Origin: Phycisphaerales bacterium
GTDB lineage: Bacteria; Planctomycetota; Phycisphaerae; Phycisphaerales; UBA1924
Direction of reading: 5' to 3'
Assembly: GCA_965227775.1 (NCBI GenBank)
Contig: OZ245777.1
Location: 2,035,992-2,099,991, forward strand
Length of the DNA: 64,000 nt
Numbering within the stretch: the first letter of the stretch is position 1; every line of letters begins with the position of its first letter. The notes under the pieces are model-generated. The model did no database searches. It was not told the origin of the DNA and was given only the letters and a program-made list of their open reading frames with translations. Positions 4,766 to 59,718 of the stretch are shown here, in pieces. Position numbers and translations under genes: made by a program.

Positions 4766-4840
4766 CGGGAGAGTTTTTCCGGCTTCGCAGGAATGATCCC
4801 GGGGTCTCGAACCTACCATCCGACGGGCCCAGGAGTCGCA

Positions 4841-9163: not shown

Positions 9164-9547
9164 TCAGCGAGTGCCAAGCACCACGCGGCCGACGACCAGA
9201 TCCCGATTGATCACGATCGGGCCGGTACCGTTGCGGCTGATCGTGAGCGTGCGCACGCCGGGGTCGAACGACTCGACGCGTCCGAGCCAGACAACGCCCG
9301 AAGCCTGGTGGTAGGCGATGATCTGCCCGGGCTTGTATCGCGAGCCCAGCTTGTAGACGAGGACGCGGCTATCGCGTGGGATCTCGGGCTCGATGGCGCC
9401 GGTCGGCACGACGTACACCTGTGCGACGGAGCTGCGAACGCCGATGGTGAGCAGCAGCGCGATGGCGACGCCCCAGCCGGCCCGCTGGAAGCGGCGGGGC
9501 CAGCGGCTGGCGCGTGAGTGCGCCGTGTGTGCGACTTGCGATGGCAT
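9164..9547 (-). CDS. Signal peptidase I (S26)-like membrane protein lacking the Ser/Lys dyad
   Basis: ORF trimmed to the ATG at 9547 (AAGGA upstream). One TM helix. By eye, YVVPTGAIEPEIPRDSRVLVYKL...GQIIAY...VWLGRVESFDPG aligns to SPase I boxes (YVVDGDSMYPTL ... GDIVV ... YVKRIIGLPGD). Ser is replaced by Ala and the Lys position is not conserved. Confidence 0.55.
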   Translation of the reverse strand: MPSQVAHTAHSRASRWPRRFQRAGWGVAIALLLTIGVRSSVAQVYVVPTGAIEPEIPRDSRVLVYKLGSRYKPGQIIAYHQASGVVWLGRVESFDPGVRTLTISRNGTGPIVINRDLVVGRVVLGTR

Positions 9548-18379: not shown

Positions 18380-18547
18380 TCACTCACACCCGGCGTCGAA
18401 CGCGTTCTGGAAGGCCAGGAAATCGAAGATGGTGAGCTCGCCGTCGCCGTCGAAGTCGGCTGCGGGGTCGCCGTCCTGGAACAGGTTCTGGAAGGCGAGG
18501 AAGTCGAAGATGGTGAGCTGACCGTCGCCATCGATGTCTGGAGCGCA
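18380..18547 (-). repeat. Dockerin-like C-terminal module, copy A (double)
   Basis: CAPDIDGDGQLTIFDFLAFQNLFQDGDPAADFDGDGELTIFDFLAFQNAFDAGCE followed by the stop. Confidence 0.9.
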
Positions 18548-19672
18548 CGCGATGGGGATGAGCAGGAACGCATGCCCGAGCGAGCCGTCGCGCACGCCGG
18601 TGCCGACGATCCATCCGTTCTCGTTGATGTGATCGGCCCGTTGCAGTCGTTCCCAGCCGAGCAAGGCCGCGTCTGGCACGAGGTCGAAGAGCGAGTAGAA
18701 CTCGCCGCCGGCGCCATCGGGCAAGACGAACGCCTGGATGCCGACGAACGGGGGCGTTGCCAGATCGGACCACCAGCCGACGATGGTGCCGTCTTCGGTG
18801 ATCGAGCGTGCGACGCCCTGGGGCCGAACGAACAGGCCATCGAGCACATGGATCGGCTCGTAGCCCGAGCCGGTGTCTTGCCAGAGCGTCGCGTACTCGG
18901 GCTGGCTGATGTTGAATTGCGCCTCGCCGACGATCAGCCCGGCGCTGTTGGCGTCGTGCGCCCGGCTCGTCACGCCGGTGAGCGACGGATGGTCGTGCAG
19001 ATTGGTTAGCACGCCGGCATCCCAAGCGAATGCCTTGTCCTGCCCCGTACTGCGGTAGCCAACAACCAGGTCGTTGTCCGTCATCGCGAGCGGGCGGTCG
19101 AGTTCGCCGAGGTCTGTAAGCGCGACTCCATCCTCGAGCAGCCAGCCGCGAAAGTCGAGCCCGCCAGAACCGCTGGGCTCACGGCCCCATCCAAACAGAG
19201 TGCCCGTGTTGTTCGAACCGCGCACGCTTGCGAGTTGGTACGGTGGCGGGGCGGCGAGCAAGTCGGAGATGGCCTGTGGGTTGCCGTCGTCGTTCCATCG
19301 CACGGCAATCGGGTCTTGGATGATTCGTATGGGCCCGGGACCGCCCTCGAAGGTGATGCGATCGGACGTTCCGAGCGGACGGCGCTGGGCATCCATGGCC
19401 CAGGCCTCGCTGGCGTTGTCGTCGCCGCGAAGCAGCGGCAGTACCTCGACGATCGAGCCCTCGCTGGTCCAACGCAGTGCGACGGGCTTGCCCTCGACCG
19501 GTTCGAAGCCGATGCCCACGACCACGCCCTCTTCGCTCACGAAGGTGGCATCCACGACGAACAGGCCGAGCGGGTCTCGGGTGACGTCGGTGAGATCGAT
19601 GATGCGATAGCTGGGTTGGGCTGTCGCGGCGGTCGCCGTGAGAAGTGCTGCAATCAAGGCTGGGTTGGTCAT
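18380..19672 (-). CDS. Secreted HAF-type repeat protein with C-terminal GC-terminated double dockerin-like module
   Basis: Signal peptide MTNPALIAALLTATAATAQP with AGGAGAA RBS. HAF-like repeats (QDKAFAWDAGVLTNL, SRAHDANSAGLIVGEA, LGHAFLLIP). The tail is the shared module (see repeat feature 18380..18547). Confidence 0.85.
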   Translation of the reverse strand: MTNPALIAALLTATAATAQPSYRIIDLTDVTRDPLGLFVVDATFVSEEGVVVGIGFEPVEGKPVALRWTSEGSIVEVLPLLRGDDNASEAWAMDAQRRPLGTSDRITFEGGPGPIRIIQDPIAVRWNDDGNPQAISDLLAAPPPYQLASVRGSNNTGTLFGWGREPSGSGGLDFRGWLLEDGVALTDLGELDRPLAMTDNDLVVGYRSTGQDKAFAWDAGVLTNLHDHPSLTGVTSRAHDANSAGLIVGEAQFNISQPEYATLWQDTGSGYEPIHVLDGLFVRPQGVARSITEDGTIVGWWSDLATPPFVGIQAFVLPDGAGGEFYSLFDLVPDAALLGWERLQRADHINENGWIVGTGVRDGSLGHAFLLIPIACAPDIDGDGQLTIFDFLAFQNLFQDGDPAADFDGDGELTIFDFLAFQNAFDAGCE

Positions 19673-19690
19673 GGCGGTTCTCCTACCGAT

Positions 19691-19858
19691 CTATTCGCAG
19701 CCGGCGTCGAAGGCGTTCTGGAAAGCAAGAAAGTCGAAGAGGGTGAGTTGGCCATCTCCGTCGAAGTCGGCTCGCGGATCACCGATCCAGAATGCATCGT
19801 GAAACCGAATGTAGTCGAACACGTTGAGCTCTCCATCCCCGTCGAAGTCCGCTCGGCA
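19691..19858 (-). repeat. Dockerin-like C-terminal module, copy B (double)
   Basis: CRADFDGDGELNVFDYIRFHDAFWIGDPRADFDGDGQLTLFDFLAFQNAFDAGCE followed by the stop. Confidence 0.9.
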
Positions 19859-22033
19859 GGGTGGTGCACATCGATTCAGGAGCACCTGAAGCGAGGGAAC
19901 GCGTGTGTCGGCTACTGCGATGTCGGTTTGTCCGTCAAGATTTACATCTGCGAGCGTGAAGTTGGCGATCGTCTCGCCCGTTCGAAGGACCGGGCTCACG
20001 AAGAATCGCCGACCTCCAAGGTGCGTGAGTACTTGCACTCCTCCTGAGACATTGGCGACGACATCTGGGATGCCGTCCGCCGTCACGTCGCCAATCTCGA
20101 TTCCTGTCGCCGCACGGCCGATGTCGACCTGCTGCCGATCGCCCACACTGCCCAGGCCATCACCCGGCCAGTAGATGATCGCGCCGTTGAGTCCATCTCC
20201 AACGACGACGTCCTCGTTGCCATCCGAATCGAAGTCGACGATGCCGATGATCCCGCTGTTGAAGCCGATGGGGAGCACGCGCTGGGGAACCAACCGGCGG
20301 TTGTCCAGCTCGAAGATTGCCACCAGCCGACTCGGGAGGGTCGTGCTTACGCCAATCTCCAGCCGACCATCACCGTTGAGGTCACCAGCGGCCATCGCCG
20401 ACGAACGATCGGCAACATCGAGAACGAGCCGGTCGTCGAAGCGACCGGTCCCGTCGTTGTACGCCACCAGCAGCCGATCTCGCTCCAGCAGCACGATCGC
20501 ATCGGGGTCACCATCGGCGTCGGCGTCGAGCAGCTCAAACGTGGCTTCGCGAGAGTCAATGTCCCACTCGGCGATCGAGCGGAGACCGCCTGGTCCTTCG
20601 TTGATGATCGTCTCCAAGCCCCCGCCCTGCTTTGTGAGTGCCACCGCGTCGAGGTCGCCGTCCAAGTCAACGTCCGCAAGCCGCAGCTGCCTCACCGCGC
20701 CGCGGAGCGAGACGGACTGGACATGCACCGGCCCGGTCGCGGTCTGCCGGAGCACGTCGAGGCGTGGTCTCGCGTTCACGGACACGAGCAGGTCTGCAAG
20801 GCCGTCTCCATCCAGGTCGCCCGCGTCGATGTCGAAGAGGCCCCACGGTTCCACGACTGCGGTTGCTAGTTGTTGAGGCAGAGGGAACGAACCCAGTCCA
20901 TCGTTCACCAGCACGGTGACGTCGAAGCCCCGCGAGTTCGGAACCGCGAGGTCGATCGCGCCGTCAGAGTTCATATCGGCCGAAACGATCTGGATGGGCT
21001 CCCGGCCCACCGGCAGGACTGTCGGCGTGCCCAAGCGGCCACCGCCCATGCTATCCAGCACGGCAACGAATCCGCCGTTTTGGTCGACAACCGCCACGTC
21101 CGCGTCGCCGTCACGGTCGAAGTCGCCGACCGCAACAGCGCCAAGCTCGCCACCCGCGGGCGCGCATTGGGCCTCGCCAAACACGCCGCCGGTGTTCAGG
21201 CGCGTGCACACCAGGCCGACGATCAACTCGGTCCAGACGAGGTCGGGGTCGCCATCGCCGTCGACGTCTCCCAGAGCGACGCCGGTGGGAAACAGGCCGG
21301 TCGGATACAGGTCCGGCTCGCCGAAGTCTCCGGTCCCGTCATTGAAGTGGACCTGGAGTCGCGGCTCGGCGAATCCGCGGCTGGAAACAACGAGGTCCGG
21401 ATCGCCGTCGCCGTCCAAATCGCTCCATGCGATCGCCTCGGCGAACGACGCGACCAGCACCGAAGAAGTGAGCTGGAAAGATCCGGAGCCGTCGTTACGC
21501 AAGAGCCGCACGCCGCTGCTTGCTCGAACGGCCAGATCGATGTCGCCGTCGCCGTCCATGTCTTCCGGACTCAGTTCGTTCGGCAGTACGCCCGAACTCG
21601 ACGTGATCGGCTCGGCGAAGCTCCCTGCTCCGTCACCCAAGAGCACATCGACTGTCGACCCGAGCGTGCTGCCATAGGCAATGTCGAGCGCTCCATCGCC
21701 GTTGAAATCGGCGGCAACCACGCACTGCAGGCGTCGCAGATCCGGCAACTCGATGGTTCGAGATTCGAACCACCCGCCCTCTCGAGCTATCGAGAGCGTG
21801 ATGTCGTTGCTGACAACGTTGGCAACCGCGAGGTCCGCTCGCCCATCCCCATTGAAATCACCCACAGCAACGCAGCTGGGGCGTTCTTCGGCAGGAAGAT
21901 CCCACGGTGCGGCAAACGGCTGCTTGCAACGGGCATCGTGCGGGCCGGTTTGGGCAACAGCGTCGGCAGCTGGTCCCAGCGGTGCGAGACCGATAGCGAT
22001 GGCCCAAACGGCGGATCGATCCCGTCGTGACAT
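19691..22033 (-). CDS. Secreted FG-GAP/VCBS repeat protein (about 14 repeats) with C-terminal GC-terminated double dockerin-like module
   Basis: Signal peptide with GGGAGG RBS. Fourteen Ca-loop repeats of the type DFNGDGRADLAV, DLDGDGDPDLVV and DFDSDGNEDVVVGD. Shared C-terminal module. Confidence 0.9.
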   Translation of the reverse strand: MSRRDRSAVWAIAIGLAPLGPAADAVAQTGPHDARCKQPFAAPWDLPAEERPSCVAVGDFNGDGRADLAVANVVSNDITLSIAREGGWFESRTIELPDLRRLQCVVAADFNGDGALDIAYGSTLGSTVDVLLGDGAGSFAEPITSSSGVLPNELSPEDMDGDGDIDLAVRASSGVRLLRNDGSGSFQLTSSVLVASFAEAIAWSDLDGDGDPDLVVSSRGFAEPRLQVHFNDGTGDFGEPDLYPTGLFPTGVALGDVDGDGDPDLVWTELIVGLVCTRLNTGGVFGEAQCAPAGGELGAVAVGDFDRDGDADVAVVDQNGGFVAVLDSMGGGRLGTPTVLPVGREPIQIVSADMNSDGAIDLAVPNSRGFDVTVLVNDGLGSFPLPQQLATAVVEPWGLFDIDAGDLDGDGLADLLVSVNARPRLDVLRQTATGPVHVQSVSLRGAVRQLRLADVDLDGDLDAVALTKQGGGLETIINEGPGGLRSIAEWDIDSREATFELLDADADGDPDAIVLLERDRLLVAYNDGTGRFDDRLVLDVADRSSAMAAGDLNGDGRLEIGVSTTLPSRLVAIFELDNRRLVPQRVLPIGFNSGIIGIVDFDSDGNEDVVVGDGLNGAIIYWPGDGLGSVGDRQQVDIGRAATGIEIGDVTADGIPDVVANVSGGVQVLTHLGGRRFFVSPVLRTGETIANFTLADVNLDGQTDIAVADTRVPSLQVLLNRCAPPCRADFDGDGELNVFDYIRFHDAFWIGDPRADFDGDGQLTLFDFLAFQNAFDAGCE

Positions 22034-22084
22034 AGCGCCTCCCTGCTGGCAGGACGATAGCTCGCCGAGCCAGGCGCCAGCCCG

Positions 22085-22171
22085 TTATGGGCAGCCGGCG
22101 TCGAAGGCGCTCTGGAACGCCAGGAAGTCGAAGATGGTCAGCGAGCCGTCGCCGTCGAAGTCGGCCTGGCA
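22085..22171 (-). repeat. Dockerin-like C-terminal module, copy C (single)
   Basis: CQADFDGDGSLTIFDFLAFQSAFDAGCP followed by the stop. Confidence 0.9.
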
Positions 22172-23503
22172 GGCGTGGGTGAACTCCAGAATTGCGTCTC
22201 CGCCTGCCACGCCGTCGCGATCGCCATCGATTTGCTCGCCAGTTACCGTGCTGCGGATCGCATCCGACAGCGTCGCGGTATAGGTATCGCCGTCGAGCGG
22301 CTCGCCCAGTCCGATGAGCATGAATTGGCTGCCCGAACCCGACGCGTCAAAGGCGACCGGTTCGCCGGCAATGTTGGTGATGGTCACGTTTGCGTCCGTG
22401 AACTCGACCGGTTCGTTGAAGATCACGCGCAGGCTAGCCACGGGGTCACCGGTCAGGATCGAGCCCCCGGGCACCGACGGGCTCGTCTCCACAACGACGG
22501 GGCCCGGCTCGCTCCCAGACTCGCGGATGAGCCAGATGCCGTTCTGGTCGGAAACGTACATCGACGCGCCGTCGGGGCTGATCGATAGTGCCTCGATCTC
22601 GATGAACCCGGTCGCCCACGCTCGATACGTTCCATCGGGGTCGAAGGCCTGAACCTGCCCGGTCACCGAGTCGACGACGTATGCCTGGTCACCGAACACG
22701 CCCGCGCCGGTCATGTCCACGTCGTTCAGATTGCGAATGCTGCACGGCTGGAGGTCGCCGATGAGCCGGTAGGTACCGCCGACCGTCACGCCGTTGAGCT
22801 CGTACATGCCGCTCAGATTGTCGTTGTTGCAGTCACGGTCTGCAAGGAGCAGGCCGCCGCCGTACGAGCCCGAGAGGTCGCGCGCCAGCCCTGCGACGTC
22901 GGTATCGGTGCGACCCGCCGGCAGGGACGAGTCCGAGCGAACGATTCTTGCATAGCTCGCGTCCATCGTGGCGAGCGTCGTCATGCCATCCGAGGCGTCG
23001 CCGTCGAGTAGCACCATGCCGAACGGATCGGTCGACCCACCGTCGAGGTACTCGAAGTCGTAATTCAGCCCGGGGCCGGTCGTCCAGCGCGTCTGCACCT
23101 GCGCATCGGGGTCCACAGAGAGCATCCTGGATACGCCGCGAGGGCCTGCGACGATGTCGAGGATGCACACGTGGATGTTGCCGTCGATGAGGCCGTCCGC
23201 GTCGAGGCGGATCCGACGCACCGAGTCGAACGGCGATTGGTCGCTGACGGCGATCGTGCGAATCACGCCGGTCGGTTCGATGAGCCGCACGGTCAGAAAC
23301 CCCGAGGGCGACACGATCGCCGAGAGCACACCCTCACCAAAGCGCGGATCATCGATGGCCTCGAGCTTCGCTCGCACGCCGTCCAGCAGCGGTGCGACCC
23401 GCCGGACGGTGAACCCATCGGGCACCTCCGGCTGCGCCAATGCGGCGACGGGGGCAAGAGCGGTCGACAGAGTGGCTGCGACGAACATCTGGCGTGCGAG
23501 CAT
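22085..23503 (-). CDS. Secreted beta-propeller-like plus Ig-like domain protein with C-terminal single dockerin-like module
   Basis: Signal peptide MLARQMFVAATLSTALAPVAALAQP with GAGGAGA RBS. Ig-like segment (SLRVIFNEPVEFTDANVTITNIAGEPVAF). The tail is one copy of the module. Confidence 0.8.
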   Translation of the reverse strand: MLARQMFVAATLSTALAPVAALAQPEVPDGFTVRRVAPLLDGVRAKLEAIDDPRFGEGVLSAIVSPSGFLTVRLIEPTGVIRTIAVSDQSPFDSVRRIRLDADGLIDGNIHVCILDIVAGPRGVSRMLSVDPDAQVQTRWTTGPGLNYDFEYLDGGSTDPFGMVLLDGDASDGMTTLATMDASYARIVRSDSSLPAGRTDTDVAGLARDLSGSYGGGLLLADRDCNNDNLSGMYELNGVTVGGTYRLIGDLQPCSIRNLNDVDMTGAGVFGDQAYVVDSVTGQVQAFDPDGTYRAWATGFIEIEALSISPDGASMYVSDQNGIWLIRESGSEPGPVVVETSPSVPGGSILTGDPVASLRVIFNEPVEFTDANVTITNIAGEPVAFDASGSGSQFMLIGLGEPLDGDTYTATLSDAIRSTVTGEQIDGDRDGVAGGDAILEFTHACQADFDGDGSLTIFDFLAFQSAFDAGCP

Positions 23504-23605
23504 CTCGGGTCTCCTCTCGGCACAGGATACAGGAAGCCGGTCGACAACGCAAGGTGAATGCGGGCGCGGGAGGCCGGCGGGGTGAGAGTGCGGGTGGGTT
23601 GCGTG

Positions 23606-23773
23606 CTACGGGCAGCCGGCGTCGAAGGCGTTCTGGAACGCAAGGAAGTCGAAGATCGTGAACGAGCCATCGCCGTCGAAGTCGGCGCGGGGGTCCATCA
23701 AGTCGAACAGGTTCTGGAACGCGAGGAAGTCGAAGATGGTGAGCTCGCCGTCGCCGTCGAGATCGGCTCGGCA
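23606..23773 (-). repeat. Dockerin-like C-terminal module, copy D (double)
   Basis: CRADLDGDGELTIFDFLAFQNLFDLMDPRADFDGDGSFTIFDFLAFQNAFDAGCP followed by the stop. Confidence 0.9.
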
Positions 23774-25537
23774 CGTTTCGCCCCGGCCATAGACGATGTA
23801 TGCGGCCCCGGTGAAGTCGAACGGCGTGACCGCAACTCCGGGTGCGCCGACAAGGACATCGCTGCGCCCGTCGCCGTTGACGTCGCCACCGCCCGCAACG
23901 CCCATGCGCAGGCGGTGCCCCGTACCGGGTGCGTCGAGATATGCCCCCTCACCAGCGATCGCCAGATCGTCGGGTTCCAGAACCGCATCGAATGTCCCGA
24001 TCGCCGGCACGTCTCGGCCCATCAGCAGGAACGCATCGCTGACGCCGGGCATGGCGACGAGCACGTCGTCGATACCATCGCCCGTCACATCTCCCGCAGC
24101 GCCGAGCGATTGCCCGGCCATCGCGTTGGACGTCGGCCCAACCAGCACGAAGCCGTCGGTTCCGTCGAGATCGTCCAGCGCGACCGAAGCCGAGAAGGGC
24201 GAGCCTGCCGGGCGACCGAACACCATGTACGTCCGCCCGTGGTCGTTGCCCGGGAAGGAATAGGACCCGTAGCGCGTGTGCGAAGCGCCGGGCGCACCGA
24301 GCGCGATGTCGTCGATGCCGTCGCCGTTGATGTCGCCTGCGCAGGCGAGCGCACCGCCCAGGCGGGCATCGATGTTGTCGATGTTCAGGGCGAAGCCCGC
24401 CGTGCCGTCGAGCTCTGCCAGGAGGACCTCAGCGGGGAAGGGATCGCTCGAGTCGCGACCGAACAGCACGTACGCCCGGCCGCCGTACACCGTGTAGCAA
24501 TAGCCATAGCCGCCGTAGCAGTACTGCTGGGAGTTGGCTCGCGGGGCGCCGATCAGCACGTCGTCGATGCCGTCGCCGTTGATGTCGCCGGCCCCGGCAA
24601 CCGTGCGACCCGCCTCGTTGAACCAGTCCTCGCCCGACGCCTTGAACCCCTGGCCGGGCGCGAGCGCATCGAGTGCGACGTCGGCGGGGAAGCCGCCCGC
24701 GCGACCAAAGAGGATGTAGACGGCCCCCCGGCCACCAATGGGCGGATCGCCCAGGTCGTTGGGAGCGCCGAGGGCGAGATCGTCCACGCCATCGCCGTTC
24801 ACGTCGCCCACGCCTGCGAGGCTGTTTCCGACGAGTGCACAGCTGGTGCCCGTGCCGATCGGCGTGCACACGTCGGCGATGCGGAAGCCGTCGGCGCCGT
24901 CGAGATCCTCAACGACCACGCGCGCGGGGAAGGGCGTGCTGCCGCCCGCGACGTTGCGGCCGAAGATGACCGCGGCGCGACCCTCGCCGAAGGACGAGTA
25001 CTGGGCGGCGCCGCTGTCGCCGACGACCAGGTCGTCCACACCGTCGCCGTTCAGGTCGCCCGCTGCCGCGACGGCGTAGCCCATCGGCCGGTCGCGGTTC
25101 GATGAGCCGATGCGAAATCCGTCGCCGCCGTCGAGGGCGGCCAGGTCGAGGCCGGCCGGCACGCCGCCCGCTCGGCCGAACACCACGTACGCCTCGCCGC
25201 CCACGCGCATCCTGCGATAGCCCTCGCTGGCCATCGCCCCGATGACGACGTCGTCCAGCCCATCGCCGTTGATGTCGCCCACGATCGCGGCCGAGAATCC
25301 GAGCTTCTCGAACGATCGCAACCCGCGTGCGAACGCGCCCAGCGTGCCATCGCCCCCGCTGGCGGGCTGGAGCGATTCGAGATCGAGCCTCTCGGGGAAC
25401 GCGTCGGCCAGGGGGTCACCCTGGGCAAGGGCGCTCCCGGCGACGGCCAGCAGCGCGAGGGTGGCGGTGACGGGAGTGATGGCGGTGATAGGGGTGGTGG
25501 GGGTGGTGGGGGTGGAGCGAACGGGCGCGTGGGGCAT
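23606..25537 (-). CDS. Secreted 7x FG-GAP (integrin-alpha-like propeller) protein with C-terminal double dockerin-like module
   Basis: ORF 23606..25684 trimmed to the ATG at 25537 (AAGGAG 7 nt upstream). Thr/Pro-rich leader and signal peptide. Seven repeats (DINGDGLDDVVIGA, DLNGDGVDDLVVGD, DVNGDGVDDLALGAP and others). Shared C-terminal module. Confidence 0.88.
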   Translation of the reverse strand: MPHAPVRSTPTTPTTPITAITPVTATLALLAVAGSALAQGDPLADAFPERLDLESLQPASGGDGTLGAFARGLRSFEKLGFSAAIVGDINGDGLDDVVIGAMASEGYRRMRVGGEAYVVFGRAGGVPAGLDLAALDGGDGFRIGSSNRDRPMGYAVAAAGDLNGDGVDDLVVGDSGAAQYSSFGEGRAAVIFGRNVAGGSTPFPARVVVEDLDGADGFRIADVCTPIGTGTSCALVGNSLAGVGDVNGDGVDDLALGAPNDLGDPPIGGRGAVYILFGRAGGFPADVALDALAPGQGFKASGEDWFNEAGRTVAGAGDINGDGIDDVLIGAPRANSQQYCYGGYGYCYTVYGGRAYVLFGRDSSDPFPAEVLLAELDGTAGFALNIDNIDARLGGALACAGDINGDGIDDIALGAPGASHTRYGSYSFPGNDHGRTYMVFGRPAGSPFSASVALDDLDGTDGFVLVGPTSNAMAGQSLGAAGDVTGDGIDDVLVAMPGVSDAFLLMGRDVPAIGTFDAVLEPDDLAIAGEGAYLDAPGTGHRLRMGVAGGGDVNGDGRSDVLVGAPGVAVTPFDFTGAAYIVYGRGETCRADLDGDGELTIFDFLAFQNLFDLMDPRADFDGDGSFTIFDFLAFQNAFDAGCP

Positions 25538-25557
25538 GGCGGGCTCCTTCGGAGCCC

Positions 25558-25586
25558 AGCATACCACAAATCCTCTGTTGATCCAA
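25558..25586 (-). promoter_or_regulatory. Candidate sigma70-like promoter for gene 23606..25537
   Basis: The minus strand reads TTGGAT-17 nt-TATGCT, preceded by TGg (extended -10). Just downstream, GGGCTCC-GAA-GGAGCCC can form a hairpin that includes the AAGGAG RBS. Promoter rules for this lineage are not established. Confidence 0.3.
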
Positions 25587-25601
25587 GGCGATTCGGGGCC
25601 G

Positions 25602-25682
25602 CTACGGGCAGCCGGCGTCGAAGGCGTTCTGGAAAGCAAGAAAGTCGAAGATGGTGAATTTGCCGTCGCCGAGCGTACGAGC
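25602..25682 (-). pseudogene. Orphan remnant of a dockerin-like module (3' gene fragment only)
   Basis: Minus-strand translation gives ARTLGDGKFTIFDFLAFQNAFDAGCP followed by the stop. An in-frame TGA lies only 43 codons upstream (25734-25736), and the open frame runs through the terminator hairpin. No passenger domain, signal peptide or RBS. Confidence 0.7.
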
Positions 25683-25690
25683 ACACACCA

Positions 25691-25725
25691 AGAGAAAACG
25701 GCGCGCCCGGAGTCGGTCGCGCCGT
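25691..25725 (-). terminator. Rho-independent terminator downstream of the PEP-CTERM gene
   Basis: Minus strand: ACGGCGCG-12 nt loop-CGCGCCGT followed by TTTTCTCTT. Begins 32 nt after the stop at 25757. Confidence 0.65.
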
Positions 25726-25756
25726 TGCCTTTCTCACCACTACCAGATGCTGGCCG

Positions 25757-26416
25757 CTACGAGCGGCGGCGCGTGCCGACGCCGACCAGCGTGATACCAG
25801 CCAGGGCGAGCATGCCGCTGCCCGGCAGCGGGATGACCACCGAGTCGGTCGGGTCGAAGTGGACCGTGTCGATCAGCACGCTGCCGCCGGGGCCGTTGAT
25901 CTCCACGCGGGCGATGCCCGAGACCGAGAAGGCGAAGAGCTGCCACGCCGTGCCAGCGCCGGAGCTGAGCGTGTCTCCGAGGTTGATCGTCTCCAGCAGC
26001 CCGCCGCCCGAGCCGAAGGCCGACATCGTCACGCCGTCGTCGGTTGTCAGCGCGAGCACGCTGAACGCGTCCCAGTTCGCGCCGACCGCCGACATCTCGA
26101 TGCCCGTAAACGTGTCGGCCGTACCGATGCGGTAGGCGTTCACGAGGCTGATGGCCCCATCGGCGCCGCCGGTTCCTGGCAGGATCACGTCGTGGTTCCA
26201 GCCCGAGGTGGTGCCGCCGAAGTCGATGCCGCTGGCAACGAACTGATTGTCGAGGCGCGTGGTGTCGGTGCCGTCCCAGGTCGTACCGCCGTAGATGCCG
26301 CTCTGGTCGAGCGACTCGAAGGTCAGCGTGACCGGGCCGGCCAGCGCGCCGGAGGCCACGACGACGGTCGCGAGCGTGGCAGAGGTGTTCTTGATGATCT
26401 TGGGTGTCTTGGTCAT
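25757..26416 (-). CDS. PEP-CTERM-type sorting-domain protein (secreted, unknown passenger)
   Basis: Signal peptide MTKTPKIIKNTSATLATVVVASGALAG with GGGAGA RBS. The C-terminus VVIPLPGSGMLALAGITLVGVGTRRRS has a Pro-containing motif, a TM helix and a basic tail, as in PEP-CTERM/exosortase substrates. Confidence 0.8.
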   Translation of the reverse strand: MTKTPKIIKNTSATLATVVVASGALAGPVTLTFESLDQSGIYGGTTWDGTDTTRLDNQFVASGIDFGGTTSGWNHDVILPGTGGADGAISLVNAYRIGTADTFTGIEMSAVGANWDAFSVLALTTDDGVTMSAFGSGGGLLETINLGDTLSSGAGTAWQLFAFSVSGIARVEINGPGGSVLIDTVHFDPTDSVVIPLPGSGMLALAGITLVGVGTRRRS

Positions 26417-26443
26417 GGTGTCATCTCCCGTGCCTGCGCACGC

Positions 26444-26611
26444 TTAGGGGCAGCCCGCCGAGAAATCGGTGCTGTATGCGAGGAAGTCGAAGAGGTTCCA
26501 GATCCCGTTGCCGTCCCAGTCGGCGATGGGGTCGCGATCGTTGAACAGGTTGAAGAACATCTGGAAATCGAAGATCGTCACATCCCCGTCCTCATCCAGG
26601 TCGACGTCGCA
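26444..26611 (-). repeat. Dockerin-like C-terminal module, copy F (double, diverged)
   Basis: CDVDLDEDGDVTIFDFQMFFNLFNDRDPIADWDGNGIWNLFDFLAYSTDFSAGCP followed by the stop. Confidence 0.85.
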
Positions 26612-28303
26612 GGGTGCCGAGCCACCGCGGCCGAACACCACGTAGCTCGAACCGGCACTCAAGCGACCACGGGGGTCTGCGAGGGTAGCTCCGATGACGA
26701 CATCGTCGATGCCGTCGCCGTTCACGTCGCCCGTGCCGGCTACGGAAAAGCCGCTGCGATCTCCTATCGTCACCCCGTCGAGGCGGAAGCCGTTGGTCCC
26801 GTCCAGGTCGTGCGACGGCAGCGCCGCGGGGAAGCCGCCCGACGACGGGGCGCGGCCAAATACCACGTAGCTCGAGCCCGTATCCCTTTGGCCGCCTGGG
26901 TCTGCTAGATACGCCCCGATGATGAGGTCATTGACGCCGTCGCCGTTGACATCGCCGGCAGAGGCGACCGCATGGCCGCTATTGCTGCTCGAAGCATTGG
27001 GGCCGTCGAAGCGGAAGCCGTTGGCGCCGTCCAGGTCGACCAGTTGCAGTGCCGCAGGGAAGCCGCCCGACGAGCCTTCGCGACCGAACACCACGTAGCT
27101 CGAGCCCGCATTTGACTGGCCGCGGGGGTCTGCATTGGGGGCCCCGATGATGACGTCGTCCACGCCGTCGCCGTTCACGTCGCCGGCCGAGGCGACAGAT
27201 CTGCCGCTCATGTCGGACGCGGCATCGCCGTCGAGGCGGAAGCCGTTGGTGCCGTCCAGGACGGCCAGGTCGAGCACCGCCGGCAAGCCGCCCGACGAGC
27301 CGTCGCGACCGAACACCACGTAGCTCGAACCGGCACTCGAGCGACCGCCGGGGCCTGCGACGGGGGCCCCGATGATGAGGTCGTCCACGCCGTCGCCGTT
27401 CACGTCGCCGGCCGAGGCGACAGATTCGCCGCTGTAGGTGGACGGCTCGGCGCCATCGAGGCGGAAGCCGTTGGTGCCGTCCAGGCCGGCGAGGTCGAGC
27501 ACCGCGGGGAAGCCGCTCGACGAGCCGTCGCGGCCGAACACCACGTAGCTCGCACCGGCACCCGTGCGACCGCCGGGGTCTGCGCGGGGCGCCCCGATGA
27601 TGACGTCGTCCACGCCGTCGCCGTTCACGTCGCCGGCCGAGGCGACAGAGTCGCCGGTGCGGTCATCACTCGCCGCCCCGTCGAGGCGGAATCCGTTGGT
27701 GCCGTCCAGCGCGGCGAGGTCGAGTGCCGCCGGGAAGCCGCCGGACGACATGTCGCGGCCGAACACCACGAAGCTCGAACCGGCACGAGGCCGCCCACTG
27801 GGGCTCCCGCGGTACGCGCCGATGATGACGTCGTCCACGCCGTCGCCATTGACATCGCCCGCACCGGCCACGGACAAGCCGCTACGTTCGCTGAATGTTG
27901 ACCCGTCGAGGCGGAAGCCGTTCGAGCCGTCCAGGCCGGCGAGGTCGAGTGCCGCCGGGAAGCCGCCGGACGACACGTCGCGGCCGAACACGACATAGCT
28001 CACGCCCGAGTCGCGTCGACCGGGGGCGTCCGCGAAGGGAGCCCCAATGACGACGTCGTCGATGCCGTCGCCGTTCACGTCGCCCACGACGGCCACGGAG
28101 GTACCGAACGAGTCAGCTACTGCCTGCCCGTCGAGTCGGAAGCCGGTGGTCCCGTCCAGGCTCGACAGCTCGAACACGGCGGGGAAGGGGTCGGTCAACT
28201 GGGCCAGGGCGACGCTCGGGCACGCCAGGCCAGCGAGCATCGCCAGGCCGACGGCACGCCGCGGGAGCGGCGCGGCCCAAAGGATCGGTGCGGGGTCAAT
28301 CAT
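26444..28303 (-). CDS. Secreted 7x FG-GAP propeller protein with a diverged C-terminal double dockerin-like module
   Basis: Signal peptide with GGAGAGAG RBS. Seven 75-aa repeats (FPAALDLAGLDGSNGFRLDG...AGDVNGDGVDDVIIGAP...SYVVFGRD). The tail is a diverged copy of the module. Confidence 0.9.
   Translation of the reverse strand: MIDPAPILWAAPLPRRAVGLAMLAGLACPSVALAQLTDPFPAVFELSSLDGTTGFRLDGQAVADSFGTSVAVVGDVNGDGIDDVVIGAPFADAPGRRDSGVSYVVFGRDVSSGGFPAALDLAGLDGSNGFRLDGSTFSERSGLSVAGAGDVNGDGVDDVIIGAYRGSPSGRPRAGSSFVVFGRDMSSGGFPAALDLAALDGTNGFRLDGAASDDRTGDSVASAGDVNGDGVDDVIIGAPRADPGGRTGAGASYVVFGRDGSSSGFPAVLDLAGLDGTNGFRLDGAEPSTYSGESVASAGDVNGDGVDDLIIGAPVAGPGGRSSAGSSYVVFGRDGSSGGLPAVLDLAVLDGTNGFRLDGDAASDMSGRSVASAGDVNGDGVDDVIIGAPNADPRGQSNAGSSYVVFGREGSSGGFPAALQLVDLDGANGFRFDGPNASSSNSGHAVASAGDVNGDGVNDLIIGAYLADPGGQRDTGSSYVVFGRAPSSGGFPAALPSHDLDGTNGFRLDGVTIGDRSGFSVAGTGDVNGDGIDDVVIGATLADPRGRLSAGSSYVVFGRGGSAPCDVDLDEDGDVTIFDFQMFFNLFNDRDPIADWDGNGIWNLFDFLAYSTDFSAGCP
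26612..28198 (-). repeat. Seven in-frame tandem repeats of 225 bp (75 aa, FG-GAP blades)
   Basis: The 59-nt core gccccgatgatgacgtcgtccacgccgtcgccgttcacgtcgccggccgaggcgacaga starts at 27141 and 27591 (identical) and at 27366 (1 mismatch). The spacing is exactly 225 bp. Confidence 0.9.
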
Positions 28304-29005
28304 GATCTCTCTCCACGAGGGCGGGCCGGCATGGGCCGCAGCGGGAGGCTACCGCGACACCCCTGGGATATCCATGACCCCTTGTCCAGAATCGCCGCGA
28401 GCGCGTGAAGCTGGGCGAACTGCTGGGGTGCGCTTGCTGAGGTGGGCTTGCTGCGGTGCGACTCTTGGGGCACGGGCGCGCTAGCAGGGCGATCGCGCAC
28501 CGCCATCGCGATCATCGGACCGACCCCGATGCCCCCGCGGGCAACGAACATGCTCCCGCGAGCGACGCCGGCGTGCTTCGTGTGCGATCCCGTGCGCGCA
28601 AGGCCCCTGCTCGTGCGCAGGGCGGGTGTTCTCGTATACACAGCAAGGCCCGCGGTGTACGCCGCGGCGGGCTTCGCGTGCACCGGAACCGTTCTCGTGT
28701 GCACGAGGAAGATTCTCGTTCTCCGTTACGCGGACCTTGCGGCCGTTCTCGGACGCATTGTGCGCACGTCCTGCGCACGTCGGTGAGCATTCCTTCGAAA
28801 TGTCATGCGTTGCGCCGGCGCGGCCGAGCCGCGCGCGAACAACGGCCGGGGACACTCTCCCGATTCTTGCAAATCGGACCAAAGTCGCGTTCCCGGACGC
28901 TCGATGACATGGTCGGTCGGGCGGCGCACGGTGCGCCGCCCGCGACACGGATGGGCCGGCGCGCACGACGCGCACCGGCGGACGAACCGACACAAGGATG
29001 GAATC

Positions 29006-29680
29006 ATGTCGATCACACCGCAGAAGCTGTTGCAACGCCTCGAGTTCTACGAGCAGCGCGCCCCCGGCTGGGTCACCAACGCGTCAACGATCGGCCTGAC
29101 GACCGAGCAGGCCACGCAGCTGCAGAACCTGGTCACCGGCACACGCACCGCGTACGACGACGCGCAGGCGGCACGCAACGCCGCCAAGAGCGCGACCGTC
29201 ACCCAGGACGCCGCCTTCGACGCCATGGACACGTTCGGCGCCCAGATGATCAAGATCATCCGCGCCTTCGGCCTGGCGACCGATGACCCGAGCGTGTTCG
29301 CGACGGCGCAGATCCCCGAGCCCAAGCAGCCCGAGCCGCGGGCGCCCGTCAACCCCAGCAACGTGACGTTCGACCTGGTCGAGAACGGGGCCCTCGAAGT
29401 TCGCTGGGACGGCCTGACCATCCCCGGCACGACCTACCTCGTCGATCGCCAGACGTGGAGCGGCACCGGCCAGCCGACGGGCTTCGCCCGCATCGCCACC
29501 GTGAGCGAGCGGCGCTTCGTCGACACCAACATCCCGACCGGCACCGCGACGGCGACGTACCGCGTGAGCGCGCTCAAGGGCGGCCAGCAGACCGCCGGCG
29601 CGCAGAGCACGGCCCACTTCGTGTTCGTGGGCAACGGGCAGGGCCAGCTCGTGACCGCGCCCGAGAGCGACGCGGCGTGA
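29006..29680 (+). CDS. Hypothetical protein with C-terminal fibronectin-III-like domain
   Basis: ATG at 29006 with AAGGA 7 nt upstream (inside listed ORF 28805..29680). Helical N-terminal half. The C-terminal segment VTFDLVENGALEVRWDGLTIPGTTYLVDRQ...ATYRVSALKG looks like FN3. No signal peptide seen. Confidence 0.6.
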   Translation: MSITPQKLLQRLEFYEQRAPGWVTNASTIGLTTEQATQLQNLVTGTRTAYDDAQAARNAAKSATVTQDAAFDAMDTFGAQMIKIIRAFGLATDDPSVFATAQIPEPKQPEPRAPVNPSNVTFDLVENGALEVRWDGLTIPGTTYLVDRQTWSGTGQPTGFARIATVSERRFVDTNIPTGTATATYRVSALKGGQQTAGAQSTAHFVFVGNGQGQLVTAPESDAA

Positions 29681-33333: not shown

Positions 33334-34143
33334 ATGCGTCGCACCCTGACCGCTGCCTGCCTGACTTCCCTTGTGGCTTCCACTGCCGTCGCCCAATCGA
33401 CCGCCACCTATCGCGTGACGTTCGATGCGACATGGTCGGAAGCAACGCACCCAGTCGATTTCCCGCGAGATCCGCACTTCTCGCCGCTCGTGGGCGCGAC
33501 CCATAGCGAGCCGGGCCTCATCTGGGAGGCCGGCCAGCTGGCAAGCCCGGGCATGGAGGTCATGGCTGAGACCGGTAGCACCTCGCTCCTGCTCTTCGAG
33601 ATTTCCCAGATGGCGACGGATGGCATGATCGGGACCGACATCGTCGGCGGGCCCATCCGCCTGAGCCCGGGCAGCGCCTCCGTGACCTTTGAGACCTCCA
33701 GTGAGTACTCGCTGCTCACCCTCGTGACGATGATCGCGCCGAGCCCAGATTGGTACGTCGGCACGCAGGGTCTGGACCTTCGTGACGACGGCCGCTGGCG
33801 CGAGAGCATCGTGTTCGAGCTGTGGCCCTATGACTCGGGCACCGACTCGGGCGTGACCTACACCTCGCCGAACCAGGACACGAACCCGGCAGAGCCGATC
33901 CGTCGCATCGCCGACGAGTTCCCCTTTACGGGCACACCCTCCCTGGGCACGTACACGATCGAACTCTTGAGCGTCGAGTGCGTCGCCGAGCTCGATGGTG
34001 ACGGCGTCCTGACCATCTTCGACTTCCTCGAGTTCTCCAACCTGTTCGATGCAGGCGATCTGCGTGCCGACCTCGACGGAGACGGCTCTCTGACCATCTT
34101 CGACTTCCTCGCGTATCAGGACGCGTTCGCCGACGGCTGCTGA
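33334..34143 (+). CDS. Secreted spondin_N-like domain protein with C-terminal double dockerin-like module
   Basis: Signal peptide with GAGAGGAGA RBS. TYRVTFDATWSEATHPVDFPRDPHFSPLVGATH ... IAPSPDWYVG is recognisable as a spondin N-terminal-type domain. The tail is the shared module, ending in DGC then the stop. Confidence 0.8.
   Translation: MRRTLTAACLTSLVASTAVAQSTATYRVTFDATWSEATHPVDFPRDPHFSPLVGATHSEPGLIWEAGQLASPGMEVMAETGSTSLLLFEISQMATDGMIGTDIVGGPIRLSPGSASVTFETSSEYSLLTLVTMIAPSPDWYVGTQGLDLRDDGRWRESIVFELWPYDSGTDSGVTYTSPNQDTNPAEPIRRIADEFPFTGTPSLGTYTIELLSVECVAELDGDGVLTIFDFLEFSNLFDAGDLRADLDGDGSLTIFDFLAYQDAFADGC
33979..34143 (+). repeat. Dockerin-like C-terminal module, copy G (double)
   Basis: CVAELDGDGVLTIFDFLEFSNLFDAGDLRADLDGDGSLTIFDFLAYQDAFADGC followed by the stop. 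Confidence 0.9.
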
Positions 34144-39819: not shown

Positions 39820-39987
39820 CTACGGACACCCAGCGTCGAACTCGTTCTGGAACGCAAGGAAGTCGAAGAGCGTGAGGCTGCCGTCGCCGTCGAAGTCGGC
39901 GCGCGGGTCGCCGGTGTCGAACAGGTTCTGGAATGCCAGGAAGTCGAAGATGGTCAGGGCGCCATCACCGTCCAGGTCGGCCCGGCA
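39820..39987 (-). repeat. Dockerin-like C-terminal module, copy H (double)
   Basis: CRADLDGDGALTIFDFLAFQNLFDTGDPRADFDGDGSLTLFDFLAFQNEFDAGCP followed by the stop. Confidence 0.9.
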
Positions 39988-40728
39988 CGGCGAGATGATG
40001 GCCACGTCGAACACCCGCACGTCGTCGATCGTGCCGAGGAACTCATCGTTGGGCCCGGCTGTTGGGCTGCCGGTAAACCTGCCGCGACCTCCGATCGAGA
40101 GCTCGAAGTCATTCTGCGCCGTCGAGCCGAACCCGGCGGGAATGGGCTCGATGGCCTCGACGATGCCATCGACTGCGAGGAGGAGGAAGTCGCCCGAGCG
40201 TGCGGCCACGATCTCGTGGGGCTGCCCGTCGTTGACGGGTGTCACGCTGGCCAGGCCGACGCTCAGGGCGCCGTCGGCGGAGATGGCGAATATCACGGCG
40301 CCGTCGTCGCGCCGGACGGTCATGGCCCAGCCGTCTTCGCTTCCGAGTTTCTCCTTGTTGATGACAAATCGACCGCCGGGGGCGCCCGGCTCGCTGTTGT
40401 CGGTCACCACGACCGCCGCGACGGAGAAGTCGCCATCGGCCAAGTCGAACGCGTCCTCGTCGCCCAGGGGGCGGACCTGTTCGTCCGAGACACCGTCGAA
40501 GTTGACCGCGAAGCCGCCCATGAAGGGCGTGAAGGCGATGCCCGCGCCCAGGACGCCGTCATACGCCGTACCCAGCGTGCCGCTATTGGCCGTCGGGTTC
40601 GAGGCGTCGTCGAAGTCGTAGTGCAGGATGGGCTCGGGCGTCTGGGCGCTCGCGGCCGAGGCGAGTGCGAAGGCGGAGCATGCAAGTGCGGCGACGGCAT
40701 TCAGTTGGGCGGAGCGGGTGATGGACAT
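39820..40728 (-). CDS. Secreted LamG/concanavalin-A-like lectin-fold protein with C-terminal double dockerin-like module
   Basis: Signal peptide MSITRSAQLNAVAALACSAFALASAASAQ. LHYDFDD...NSGTLG...NFDGVSD...FSVAAVV...GTIDDVRVF is typical of the Laminin_G_3-type fold. Shared C-terminal module. Confidence 0.8.
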   Translation of the reverse strand: MSITRSAQLNAVAALACSAFALASAASAQTPEPILHYDFDDASNPTANSGTLGTAYDGVLGAGIAFTPFMGGFAVNFDGVSDEQVRPLGDEDAFDLADGDFSVAAVVVTDNSEPGAPGGRFVINKEKLGSEDGWAMTVRRDDGAVIFAISADGALSVGLASVTPVNDGQPHEIVAARSGDFLLLAVDGIVEAIEPIPAGFGSTAQNDFELSIGGRGRFTGSPTAGPNDEFLGTIDDVRVFDVAIISPCRADLDGDGALTIFDFLAFQNLFDTGDPRADFDGDGSLTLFDFLAFQNEFDAGCP

Positions 40729-40831: not shown

Positions 40832-40920
40832 CTACGGGCAGCCGGCGGCCAACTCGTTCTCGAACGCGAGAACGTCGAAGATGGTCAGCCTTCCGTCGCG
40901 CCATCGAAGCCGGCCCGAAG
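40832..40920 (-). pseudogene. Decayed, frameshifted remnant of a dockerin-like module
   Basis: The tail of listed 60-aa ORF 40832..41014 reads RWRDGRLTIFDVLAFENELAAGCP followed by the stop. What is left of the Ca-loop (FDGATEG) is in another frame. 21 nt (gcgtgctacgggcagccggcg) are identical to the 3' end plus flank of gene 23606..25537. Confidence 0.55.
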
Positions 40921-58706: not shown

Positions 58707-59663
58707 GTGATCATCCGTGCGGGACAGCCGTGGGAGGTGCGCTTGCTCAGAGAGACCGCCATCGTCGTCGCAGCAGCCGCCCTGGCATGTGTCAGCCGGT
58801 CCGCCCAAGCCCAGGACGCCAGCGACGTGTCCGAGGCCTCCCTCATCGCTGAGTCAGTTCAGGTGGCCCCTGGTACCACCGTGCTGTTGGGGCTCCACTT
58901 CGAGCTCGCGGACGGCTGGCACATCTACTGGAATGGTCGCAACGACACAGGCTTTGCGCCCGAGGTCGACTGGGCGCTTCCCGAGGGCGTCGCGGTCGGC
59001 CCGCTCTTGTGGCCGGCTCCAGAGCGATACATCTCGCCCGGCGACATCCTCGATCACGTGTACGAGGGCAACCCGACCATTCTGGTGCCCGTCACCATCT
59101 CAGCGGACGCAGCGCCCGGCTCCACGCTCTCGATCTCCGGCGAAGCCGAGTGGCTGGTGTGCAAGGAACTCTGTCTGCCCGGCTTCGGCCCGATCTCTAT
59201 CGATCTGACAGTGGGCGAGGCATCGACAACGCGGGCAGCACCCCTTTCCCGCGCTTCGGACATTGGCGAGGCCGCAACGCGATTGCCCGAGCCAGTAGCT
59301 GCTGCGACGCAGCCCGAATCGTTCACGGTGGCATGGACGGCGGAAGCCGTCACCGTTCGAGCTGCCGGGTCGAGGTCGGTGGAGTTCTATCCGGCACTGT
59401 CCTCAACGCCACTTGCGAACACGCTTGCAGACGCGCAGGCCAAGGGCGACACGATGCGCCTCCGCCTCGCCTCCGAGTCTCGCGGCATGCAGACCAATGA
59501 CGAGCGGCGGCTCGTAGGCGTGCTCGCGATTGAGTCTGCCTCTGGCGTGAAGAACTGGTACCAAATCGACTCGGGGCCGGACGGCTTTCGTACCCCGGAA
59601 AACTCAGAGCTGGTTTCACGTGTCCGCCAGCGCGTTGGCAACCCTGCCGACGACGGCGGCTGA
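58707..59663 (+). CDS. DsbD/DsbC N-terminal-domain-like (thiol:disulfide interchange) periplasmic protein
   Basis: GTG start and signal peptide. ELADGWHIYWNGRNDTGFAPEVDW ... EAEWLVCKELCLPG matches the DsbD-alpha-like domain pattern (H-x-Y-W ... C-x-x-x-C). Confidence 0.65.
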   Translation: MIIRAGQPWEVRLLRETAIVVAAAALACVSRSAQAQDASDVSEASLIAESVQVAPGTTVLLGLHFELADGWHIYWNGRNDTGFAPEVDWALPEGVAVGPLLWPAPERYISPGDILDHVYEGNPTILVPVTISADAAPGSTLSISGEAEWLVCKELCLPGFGPISIDLTVGEASTTRAAPLSRASDIGEAATRLPEPVAAATQPESFTVAWTAEAVTVRAAGSRSVEFYPALSSTPLANTLADAQAKGDTMRLRLASESRGMQTNDERRLVGVLAIESASGVKNWYQIDSGPDGFRTPENSELVSRVRQRVGNPADDGG

Positions 59664-59718
59664 AGACTCATCCTGCATTCACGGTCGCAAGAGCGGCCAC
59701 TAGGAAAGGAGCCCTTCC

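Follow-up and report, generated by a model that had tools for sequence, protein, structure and literature searches.

What a shared C-terminal tail does for a row of exported proteins with differing passengers is the question raised by a gene island of a Phycisphaerales bacterium (contig OZ245777.1 of assembly GCA_965227775.1). The whole stretch of 64,000 nucleotides that was analysed (positions 2,035,992 to 2,099,991 of the contig, forward strand) is called the window below, and coordinates are counted from its first letter. At 18380-28303, the list of open reading frames (ORFs) of the window contains six ORFs of the same direction on the minus strand (18380-19672, 19691-22033, 22085-23503, 23606-25684, 25757-26416 and 26444-28303). 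A preliminary description, made from the sequence alone, read them as a dedicated surface display or anchoring system in which five of the six members end in a common Cys-bracketed double calcium module. The six genes, with product lengths in amino acids (aa), are the following:

18380..19672, minus strand: gene 1, 430 aa; signal peptide, HAF-repeat passenger, full GC-type dockerin module, end ...DAGCE
19691..22033, minus strand: gene 2, 780 aa; signal peptide, FG-GAP_3 array, full module, end ...DAGCE
22085..23503, minus strand: gene 3, 472 aa; signal peptide, unclassified passenger, half module C-x25-C-P
23606..25537, minus strand: gene 4, 643 aa; signal peptide, FG-GAP propeller, full module, end ...DAGCP
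25757..26416, minus strand: gene 5, 219 aa; signal peptide, passenger without Pfam family, PEP-CTERM-like tail, no dockerin module
26444..28303, minus strand: gene 6, 619 aa; signal peptide, 7 FG-GAP repeats, most divergent full module, end ...SAGCP

The tail, hereafter the tag, belongs to a family that is already catalogued, and the island genes are members of it, because the module is that of NF041540 (dockerin_GC), a profile of 67 positions with a curated cut-off of 29 bits. The model whose existence the preliminary description had considered possible is therefore real, under the name 'GC-type dockerin domain-anchored protein'. Six proteins of the window exceed the cut-off over the whole 67-position profile: those of genes 1 (46.8 bits), 2 (39.0 bits), 4 (44.6 bits) and 6 (32.3 bits), and those of two genes outside the island, with spondin (44.4 bits) and laminin-G (47.9 bits) passengers:

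33334..34143, plus strand: spondin tagged gene, 269 aa; signal peptide, Spond_N (E 1e-47), full module, end ...ADGC-stop
39820..40728, minus strand: laminin-G tagged gene, 302 aa; signal peptide, Laminin_G_3 (E 6e-10), full module, end ...DAGCP

The full modules of the window differ in nothing from NF041540. The protein of gene 3 reaches only 19.2 bits, over profile positions 34-67, which is below the cut-off, as its half module consists of one calcium loop and helix between two cysteines (Cys span 26). Of the double module ascribed to five island genes, the full form is thus present in genes 1, 2, 4 and 6 and a single repeat in gene 3; gene 5 was rightly set apart as lacking the module, and its PEP-CTERM-like tail had been missed. 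The full module of the four island genes has 55 residues, C-x52-C-[EP], with two D-x-D-G-D-G-x-L-T-I-F-D loops, and its consensus reads C-x2-[D-x-D-G-D-G-x-L-T-I-F-D-F-L-A-F-Q-N-x-F]-x5-A-[same repeat]-D-A-G-C-[E/P]-stop. Acidic residues occupy loop positions 1, 3, 5 and 12 of each repeat; position 12 is Asp and not Glu, as in dockerins. Both helices are rich in Phe (F-D-F-L-A-F-Q-N-x-F), every position being more than 85% conserved. All seven window tags end in GCE, GCP or GC-stop, and all tagged island genes in GCE or GCP, as had been stated of them.

The claim that the tail is a discrete module agrees with the structure prediction: for the seven window tails AlphaFold2 gave a predicted local distance difference test score (pLDDT) of 86.9, with helices at residues 13-24 and 40-51 and no helix before the loops; the sequence has two canonical calcium-loop motifs of dockerin type. 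In a Foldseek search of the Protein Data Bank (PDB), the 13 best matches were all dockerins, 12 of them chains from cohesin-dockerin complexes, with template-modelling (TM) scores of 0.53-0.62 and root-mean-square deviations of 2.2-4.1 Å, while EF-hand proteins in the ranking reached a TM-score of only about 0.3. The E-values of these matches (about 1-3) are weak because the domain has 55 residues, and the fold assignment therefore rests on the rank order and the TM-scores. When the modules were compared with Pfam Dockerin_1 (PF00404, gathering score 22.9 bits), a check that the preliminary description had proposed, the outcome was divided: the isolated module of gene 4 passed with 24.0 bits, Dockerin_1 being its best Pfam family, but the isolated module of the laminin-G gene (22.3 bits) and the full-length protein of gene 1 (19.5 bits) remained below, and the other full-length proteins were unreported at E 0.01. 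We conclude that the tail resembles a dockerin-type double calcium module in its working, and that its membership of Pfam Dockerin_1 is borderline.

The likeness to type I dockerins extends to several features. In both, segments of about 22-27 residues are duplicated, each with a calcium loop that has Asp at position 12 and a helix, without an entering helix; both usually stand at the C-terminus of secreted proteins in a one-to-many family; the repeats are nearly identical, as in the dockerins with a dual binding mode; and natural variants with a single repeat occur in both. The differences are equally definite. The GC-type tag has a Cys-Cys bracket where the clasp of dockerins is non-covalent, its Pfam scores are borderline (19.5-24 bits vs 22.9), and loop positions 10-11 are Ile-Phe, whereas in the type I dockerins of Clostridium thermocellum these positions are Ser-Thr and contact the cohesin.

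A scan of public genomes, one genome per species, returned more than 534 matches to the tag pattern, of which at least 487 were confirmed, and the 80 best matches all fell in eight metagenome-assembled genomes (MAGs) of Phycisphaerales or Phycisphaeraceae. 'GC-type dockerin domain-anchored protein' is also the name that the NCBI Prokaryotic Genome Annotation Pipeline (PGAP) gives to homologous fragments in the Phycisphaerales MAGs JB039, JB059, JB060 and JB064. In a library of 1.84 billion proteins, 1,857 clusters matched the tag at E <= 1e-10, and nearly all of the best 150 matches end at the last or second-to-last residue. The rules of the family were taken from 1.15 Mb of related loci (numbered with the prefix L) from 8 genomes, together with the window. 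This sample contains 184 tag-bearing ORFs, 180 of them with a stop codon, and in every one of these 180 the tag lies no more than 6 residues from the end; the last residues are GC or GC-x in 175. The tag sits on exported proteins: a signal-peptide-like N-terminus was recognised by a crude script in 141 of 158 tagged proteins. In each member a variable passenger precedes a constant tag of 54-55 residues. The passengers are mostly beta-propellers (FG-GAP, HAF and Rax2 type) and lectin-like domains, with some proteases and esterases. Among 89 tagged proteins 28 Pfam families were matched, with FG-GAP in 16, FG-GAP_3 in 15, Rax2 and DUF6087 in 8 each, DUF5122 in 5, a lactonase propeller in 3, and Peptidase_S8 (subtilase), GSDH and Beta_helix in 2 each; Peptidase_M43, Peptidase_S9, esterases and CBM96 are among the single cases.

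Tagged genes commonly lie in runs (70 singles, 34 pairs, 6 triplets, 4 quadruplets and one run of 7), and 60 of the 64 adjacent tagged pairs are co-directional. Because such runs are common, the window island is a typical, rather long run and no special system: it represents one local tandem cluster within the large, lineage-specific family of Sec-exported proteins that marine Phycisphaerales (Planctomycetota) possess. The proposal of a dedicated six-gene system is further weakened by the two additional tagged genes listed above, which are situated among housekeeping genes at distances of 5 and 11.5 kb, by the at least 487 copies in public Phycisphaerales, and by related genomes, in which runs of 2-7 are the norm and other sets of tagged genes occupy apparently the same locus. 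The window is syntenic with the Phycisphaerae MAG locus L004, where glyA, a PhoPQ-related gene and the HAF gene are 78-86% identical in nucleotide sequence, and a related run of tagged genes is held by L049; the orthologues of gene 1 in these two loci share 74-79% aa identity with it. A self-contained system with its own machinery was rejected, as no machinery gene lies inside the island, tagged genes are dispersed over the whole genome, and the gene content differs both in the syntenic L004 and in L049.

Other elements of the preliminary description of the island proved correct. The start of gene 4 is most likely the ATG at 25537 (MPHAP...), which is preceded by AAGGAG, rather than the upstream GTG; the 643-aa product read from it has an exact-sequence match in a public protein collection, as have eight other products of the window that were looked up. 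With this start, the gaps between the genes are 18, 51, 102, 219 and 27 bp, the short spacing that had been reported. An AGGAG/GGGAG-type motif stands 6-9 bases before each of the six starts, and all six N-termini are signal-peptide-like by eye, with basic residues, a hydrophobic segment and a site that resembles A-x-A-Q. The HAF and FG-GAP passengers were recovered by profile: gene 1 matches the HAF repeat (TIGR02913, 28.4 bits vs a cut-off of 22.65), gene 2 FG-GAP_3 in 12 stretches (Pfam, E 1e-70), and genes 4 and 6 FG-GAP in 6 and 7 stretches, respectively (E 1.5e-57 for gene 6), the passengers of the last two being 42% identical. The laminin-G gene encodes a laminin-G or concanavalin-like lectin domain and has an orthologue of 84% aa identity in L051. 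For gene 3, the label 'propeller plus Ig' is unverified, because the passenger has no Pfam match above cut-off, only a sub-threshold match to the SGL propeller, and a PDB search found no relatives of genes 3 and 5 among solved structures.

Of the two cysteines of the tag, the first stands three residues before loop 1 and the second is the last or second-to-last residue, with a Cys-Cys span of exactly 53 in 153 of the 180 tags. In the full modules both cysteines are kept in 165 cases and both are lost in 4, and in the single apparent exception the Cys is shifted by an insertion. Such joint retention and loss suggests a disulfide clasp. In dockerins the two ends of the module are joined by an 'intramolecular clasp', to which the three residues preceding loop 1 and the C-terminal residues contribute and which stabilises the calcium-bound, cohesin-binding form (PMC3821032). 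Half modules account for 9 of the 180 tags; natural single-repeat dockerins bind one cohesin two at a time (PMC12270676). In low-GC bacteria of another lineage, the proteins P0135, P0138, P0139 and P0170 contain internal double calcium-loop modules with a Cys bracket, three or four of them in tandem, in P0139 besides a C-terminal peptidoglycan-binding domain, and P0137 contains three repeats inside one bracket. Since the bracket encloses internal tandem modules in these unrelated bacteria, the cysteines belong to the fold and are not a signal of the chain end, and for the same reason a terminal Cys that serves as a lipidation or cleavage site is unlikely.

An additional pair of cysteines, one at loop position 3 and the other in the helix behind it (ADCDGDG...FDFLCFQ), was seen in a few modules (L005:7730-9205, L041:4035-5531, L047:4701-5732, L033:15370-17769 and L060:1791-2543) and suggests a second disulfide in them. 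The window itself (58707-60390 and 4793-9153, both plus strand) has genes for a DsbD N-terminal-domain protein and, beside it, a thioredoxin-like protein of the AhpC/TSA kind, and also genes for cytochrome c assembly of the ResB/CcsA type; this thiol-disulfide machinery of the envelope is possibly relevant to a tag that needs a disulfide.

Among the window paralogues the tags share about 56-86% aa identity, and the passengers are unrelated or 30-45% identical. Where the residues of two tags are identical, the same codon is used in a fraction of 0.50-0.73, compared with 0.55 expected from codon usage alone. Since codon agreement is at the level of codon usage, the tag copies are ancient ones that purifying selection on the protein has maintained, and gene conversion was rejected as the cause of their similarity. 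The polar helix residues Q20, N21, Q47 and N48 are near-invariant in the tags. Together with the Phe-rich face in both repeats, they would fit a shared binding partner.

A second line of comparative evidence comes from gene 5. Its tail consists of VIPLPGSG, 17 hydrophobic residues and RRRS, and we assign it to the PEP-CTERM-like class, weakly by profile: it is unreported by TIGR02595 (PEP-CTERM, cut-off 16 bits) and has weak sub-threshold matches to the tails of specific PEP-CTERM families (E 0.04-0.2). Endings of the form IPAPAS, hydrophobic helix and RRRR occur in seven proteins of the related loci, one of which, in L016, passes TIGR02595 with 20 bits. In a passenger family of about 190 residues, '...EG.A.IRV' is followed at the same alignment position either by 'IPAPAS + helix + RRRR' or by 'CRAD...GC', with 31-43% identity across the two tag classes (L057:18168-18932, L066:574-1254, L017:3310-4107 and L026:126-869). 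At L015:5057-6517, a tandem pair (32% identity, E 3e-15) bears one tail of each kind, and spondin domains are seen with either. Because related passengers bear one tail or the other, the tag appears equivalent in its job to the PEP-CTERM-like tail, and both would serve the same end, the retention of exported proteins in the envelope. The tail of gene 5 also implies that an exosortase-type route probably exists elsewhere in the genome. The preliminary description was right that the window holds no cohesin, sortase or exosortase (none was found among the about 36 window proteins scanned with Pfam), but the alternation of tails means that, for an exosortase-type route, this absence cannot be extended to the genome.

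From these results a hypothesis on the role of the tag may be formed, to which we assign a probability of roughly 0.55: many exported passengers are docked to a common envelope receptor in a calcium-dependent, disulfide-stabilised manner. After export, the tag would fold around two calcium ions, as the sequence and the model suggest. The two cysteines would form a disulfide that ties the ends of the module together, a covalent form of the dockerin clasp. The two near-identical Phe-rich helices would then bind a putative common receptor in the cell envelope, and the many passengers would be held at the surface; single-repeat tags such as that of gene 3 may act in pairs.

Several observations weigh against this hypothesis. 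No receptor was found in the window or among the listed Pfam families of the tagged relatives; Cohesin in particular is absent from the 25 listed (of 28 matched) Pfam families of the 89 tagged proteins. Tagged proteins could remain in the periplasm, since these bacteria have an outer membrane, and the signal peptides were judged by eye and with a crude script. The Foldseek E-values (about 1) are not significant, the full-length tagged proteins are mostly under the Dockerin_1 cut-off, and by sequence the nearest solved chains (Entamoeba calcium-binding proteins, a Ruminococcus dockerin and calmodulin) include EF-hand proteins no less than dockerins. Furthermore, the cysteines of one-repeat modules (n = 9) and of the three-repeat module of P0137 should sit at opposite ends of the fold, where intermolecular pairing fits better than a clasp, so that in these modules the cysteines may pair between chains.

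The last point leads to a rival explanation, in which the tag serves self-association: modules would pair, with intermolecular disulfides, into a calcium-dependent surface layer or matrix of tagged proteins. Modules of one repeat (9/180) or three (P0137) are unable to close as a two-repeat module normally does, which suggests that separate chains pair; the content of Phe in the two helices is unusually high, and cohesin was seen neither among the window proteins nor in the listed passenger families. Other bacteria, moreover, bear three to four tandem modules on a peptidoglycan-binding protein, a layout able to recruit modules. Nevertheless, we regard self-association as unlikely, because in 153 of the 180 tags the span is precisely the two-repeat one that an intramolecular clasp would require, the monomer is predicted with confidence to be a closed domain of two helices, and known dockerins, single-repeat ones included, bind cohesins and not each other (PMC12270676). 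Somewhat less probable still is that the tag is an export or sorting signal, read by a secretion or processing machine as are the C-terminal domains of the type IX secretion system (T9SS) or the PEP-CTERM tails; it would serve the crossing of the outer membrane or covalent attachment through the terminal Cys, and might then be removed. Its strictly C-terminal place, with Cys last or second-to-last in 175/180 tags, its exchange with PEP-CTERM-like tails on related passengers, and its one-to-many distribution, typical of sorting signals, would all be expected of such a signal, but in other phyla the Cys-bracketed module is internal and tandem, so neither the fold nor the cysteines need a free C-terminus. 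The tag also has no hydrophobic helix or basic cluster, and no candidate for a recurrent processing enzyme was found beside tagged genes in the 1.15 Mb of related loci, the sole enriched neighbour being a small FN3 protein described below.

The simplest alternative, that the tag has no partner and is only a calcium-binding cap that stabilises secreted proteins in seawater, seems quite improbable to us. The calcium-loop motifs are canonical, the sequence matches calcium-binding proteins as well as dockerins, and the searches returned no partner, all of which agrees with a stabiliser; however, a cap would not need near-invariant exposed Q20, N21, Q47 and N48 across about 170 old paralogues, and its exchange with a sorting tail at the same junction would be unexpected. 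Purifying selection, the paired cysteines and the swap with PEP-CTERM tails together point to one conserved job of the tag, namely retention in the envelope.

Dockerin-like modules without cohesins have long been recorded outside the cellulosome-producing bacteria, and their role has been unexplained; in the clade studied here, such a module has become the principal C-terminal tag. Compared with cellulosomes, the passengers are propellers, lectin-like domains and proteases and not mainly carbohydrate-active enzymes, and the host lineage is an aerobic-type marine planctomycete one with an outer membrane, in which no cohesin was identified. The nearest published idea, itself a hypothesis, concerns the same taxonomic class: it is the 'planctosome' of freshwater Phycisphaerae, in which cohesins and dockerins would assemble secreted proteins at the cell surface without forming a cellulosome (Andrei et al. 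2019, ISME J, PMC6461901). It was built on Pfam cohesin and dockerin domains in a few proteins of Nemodlikiaceae with peptidase cargo, whereas here the GC-type variant occurs in hundreds of copies with no cohesin in hand. The PEP-CTERM/exosortase system (TIGR02595; Haft et al. 2006, PMC1569441) likewise combines a C-terminal tag, Sec-exported surface proteins and a one-to-many family; its tag, however, is a short motif followed by a membrane helix and an Arg cluster for the exosortase, and the GC-type tag is a soluble, folded calcium-binding domain.

With regard to annotation the tag is ordinary, because the family has a curated model. NF041540 is such an annotation model, and a search for the family name 'GC-type dockerin' in the literature library that was available gave no paper, in agreement with the earlier statement that no functional description is known. 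New here are the paired retention and loss of the cysteines, the purifying selection on old tags, and the alternation with a PEP-CTERM tail at the same junction. A wider picture, which we put forward tentatively and hold to be possible but doubtful, is that marine Phycisphaerales display surface proteins by a system peculiar to them and without a classical cohesin: hundreds of propeller, lectin and hydrolase passengers per clade would be held on an envelope receptor, or on each other, by a disulfide-locked calcium module interchangeable with PEP-CTERM tails, single-repeat tags would act as disulfide-linked pairs, and tagged genes would turn over in variable islands that take up defence systems. 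Tag passengers resemble matrix and adhesion proteins of animals (integrin-alpha-like propellers, spondin, laminin-G). Identification of the receptor would reveal how the surface of these abundant marine bacteria is put together, and it could give a small, disulfide-locked, calcium-switchable docking pair for protein engineering.

The spacers of the window contain remains that bear on how the tagged genes are transcribed and replaced:

25690..25729, minus strand: terminator-like hairpin with a U-rich tract, directly behind gene 5; folding energy of the RNA -23.4 kcal/mol (z -2.39), then UUUUCUCUU
25602..25670, minus strand: orphan 3' relic of a module, GDGKFTIFDFLAFQNAFDAGCP-stop, in the spacer between genes 5 and 4; six-frame read, profile match on a 43-aa ORF without passenger
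40832..40894, minus strand: second orphan relic of a module, GRLTIFDVLAFENELAAGCP-stop, a short way upstream of the laminin-G gene; 80-aa ORF without passenger that matches the profile

The hairpin and the relic after gene 5 contradict a reading of the island as one operon. A consensus scan of the region for promoters and terminators did not report the hairpin at 25690..25729; it gave no promoter-like site and one weak terminator-like site, fewer than in shuffled sequence. Both relics keep their stop codon, each lies just upstream of an intact tagged gene, and they look like the remains of replaced genes. From the relics and the differing neighbours it follows that tagged genes sit where genes get replaced, with the 3' ends of the tags left behind. 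Dead tag fragments were also seen in L079, from a complete Phycisphaera genome, where they (6487-6984 and 9293-9451) flank a gene for an nSTAND NTPase with leucine-rich repeats (LRR).

Two proteins encoded in the window were considered as partners of the tag and rejected. A protein of 2,481 aa (50565-58010, plus strand) was examined as a scaffold, but it has no cohesin match and no tag, and its domains recur as passengers: domains related to it are the passengers of 18 tagged proteins elsewhere. It has no evident signal peptide, an N-terminal 'LESRILL', many domains that appear repeated by eye, and a weak ASRT-like C-terminus. Upstream of gene 6, about 700 bp (28304-29005) without a convincing gene, Rfam match or sigma-70-like promoter separate the island from a divergent gene, and the window as a whole contains no Rfam families or tRNAs that could be found:

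29006..29680, plus strand: divergent neighbour of the FN3 family, 224 aa; no signal peptide, helical hairpin, Pro-rich linker and FN3 domain

This protein has no Pfam match and a weak one to NF052641 ('PQLLE family', 30 bits vs a cut-off of 80), a name for which no paper was found in the literature search; AlphaFold2 modelled it with a pLDDT of 84, and its Foldseek matches are FN3 domains. Beyond the window copy, the family has 18 paralogues (e.g. L004:6061-6765 and L035:6703-7722) and is confined to the same clade as the tag. When all locus genes were clustered, it was the only enriched untagged neighbour, lying beside a tagged gene in 14 of 19 copies compared with a background of 28% (p = 4e-5). 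As the receptor it was rejected, since it has no signal peptide, its fold is not cohesin-like, it occurs in every orientation, and it is also found beside defence genes. In loci centred on the family it adjoins an operon of the cyclic-oligonucleotide-based antiphage signalling system (CBASS) and an nSTAND NTPase gene, and it more likely marks variable islands. At L081:809-10660, a CBASS operon (SMODS, E2, patatin) stands between a run of three tagged genes and a gene of the FN3 family. Surface-protein islands and defence islands thus seem to share hotspots.

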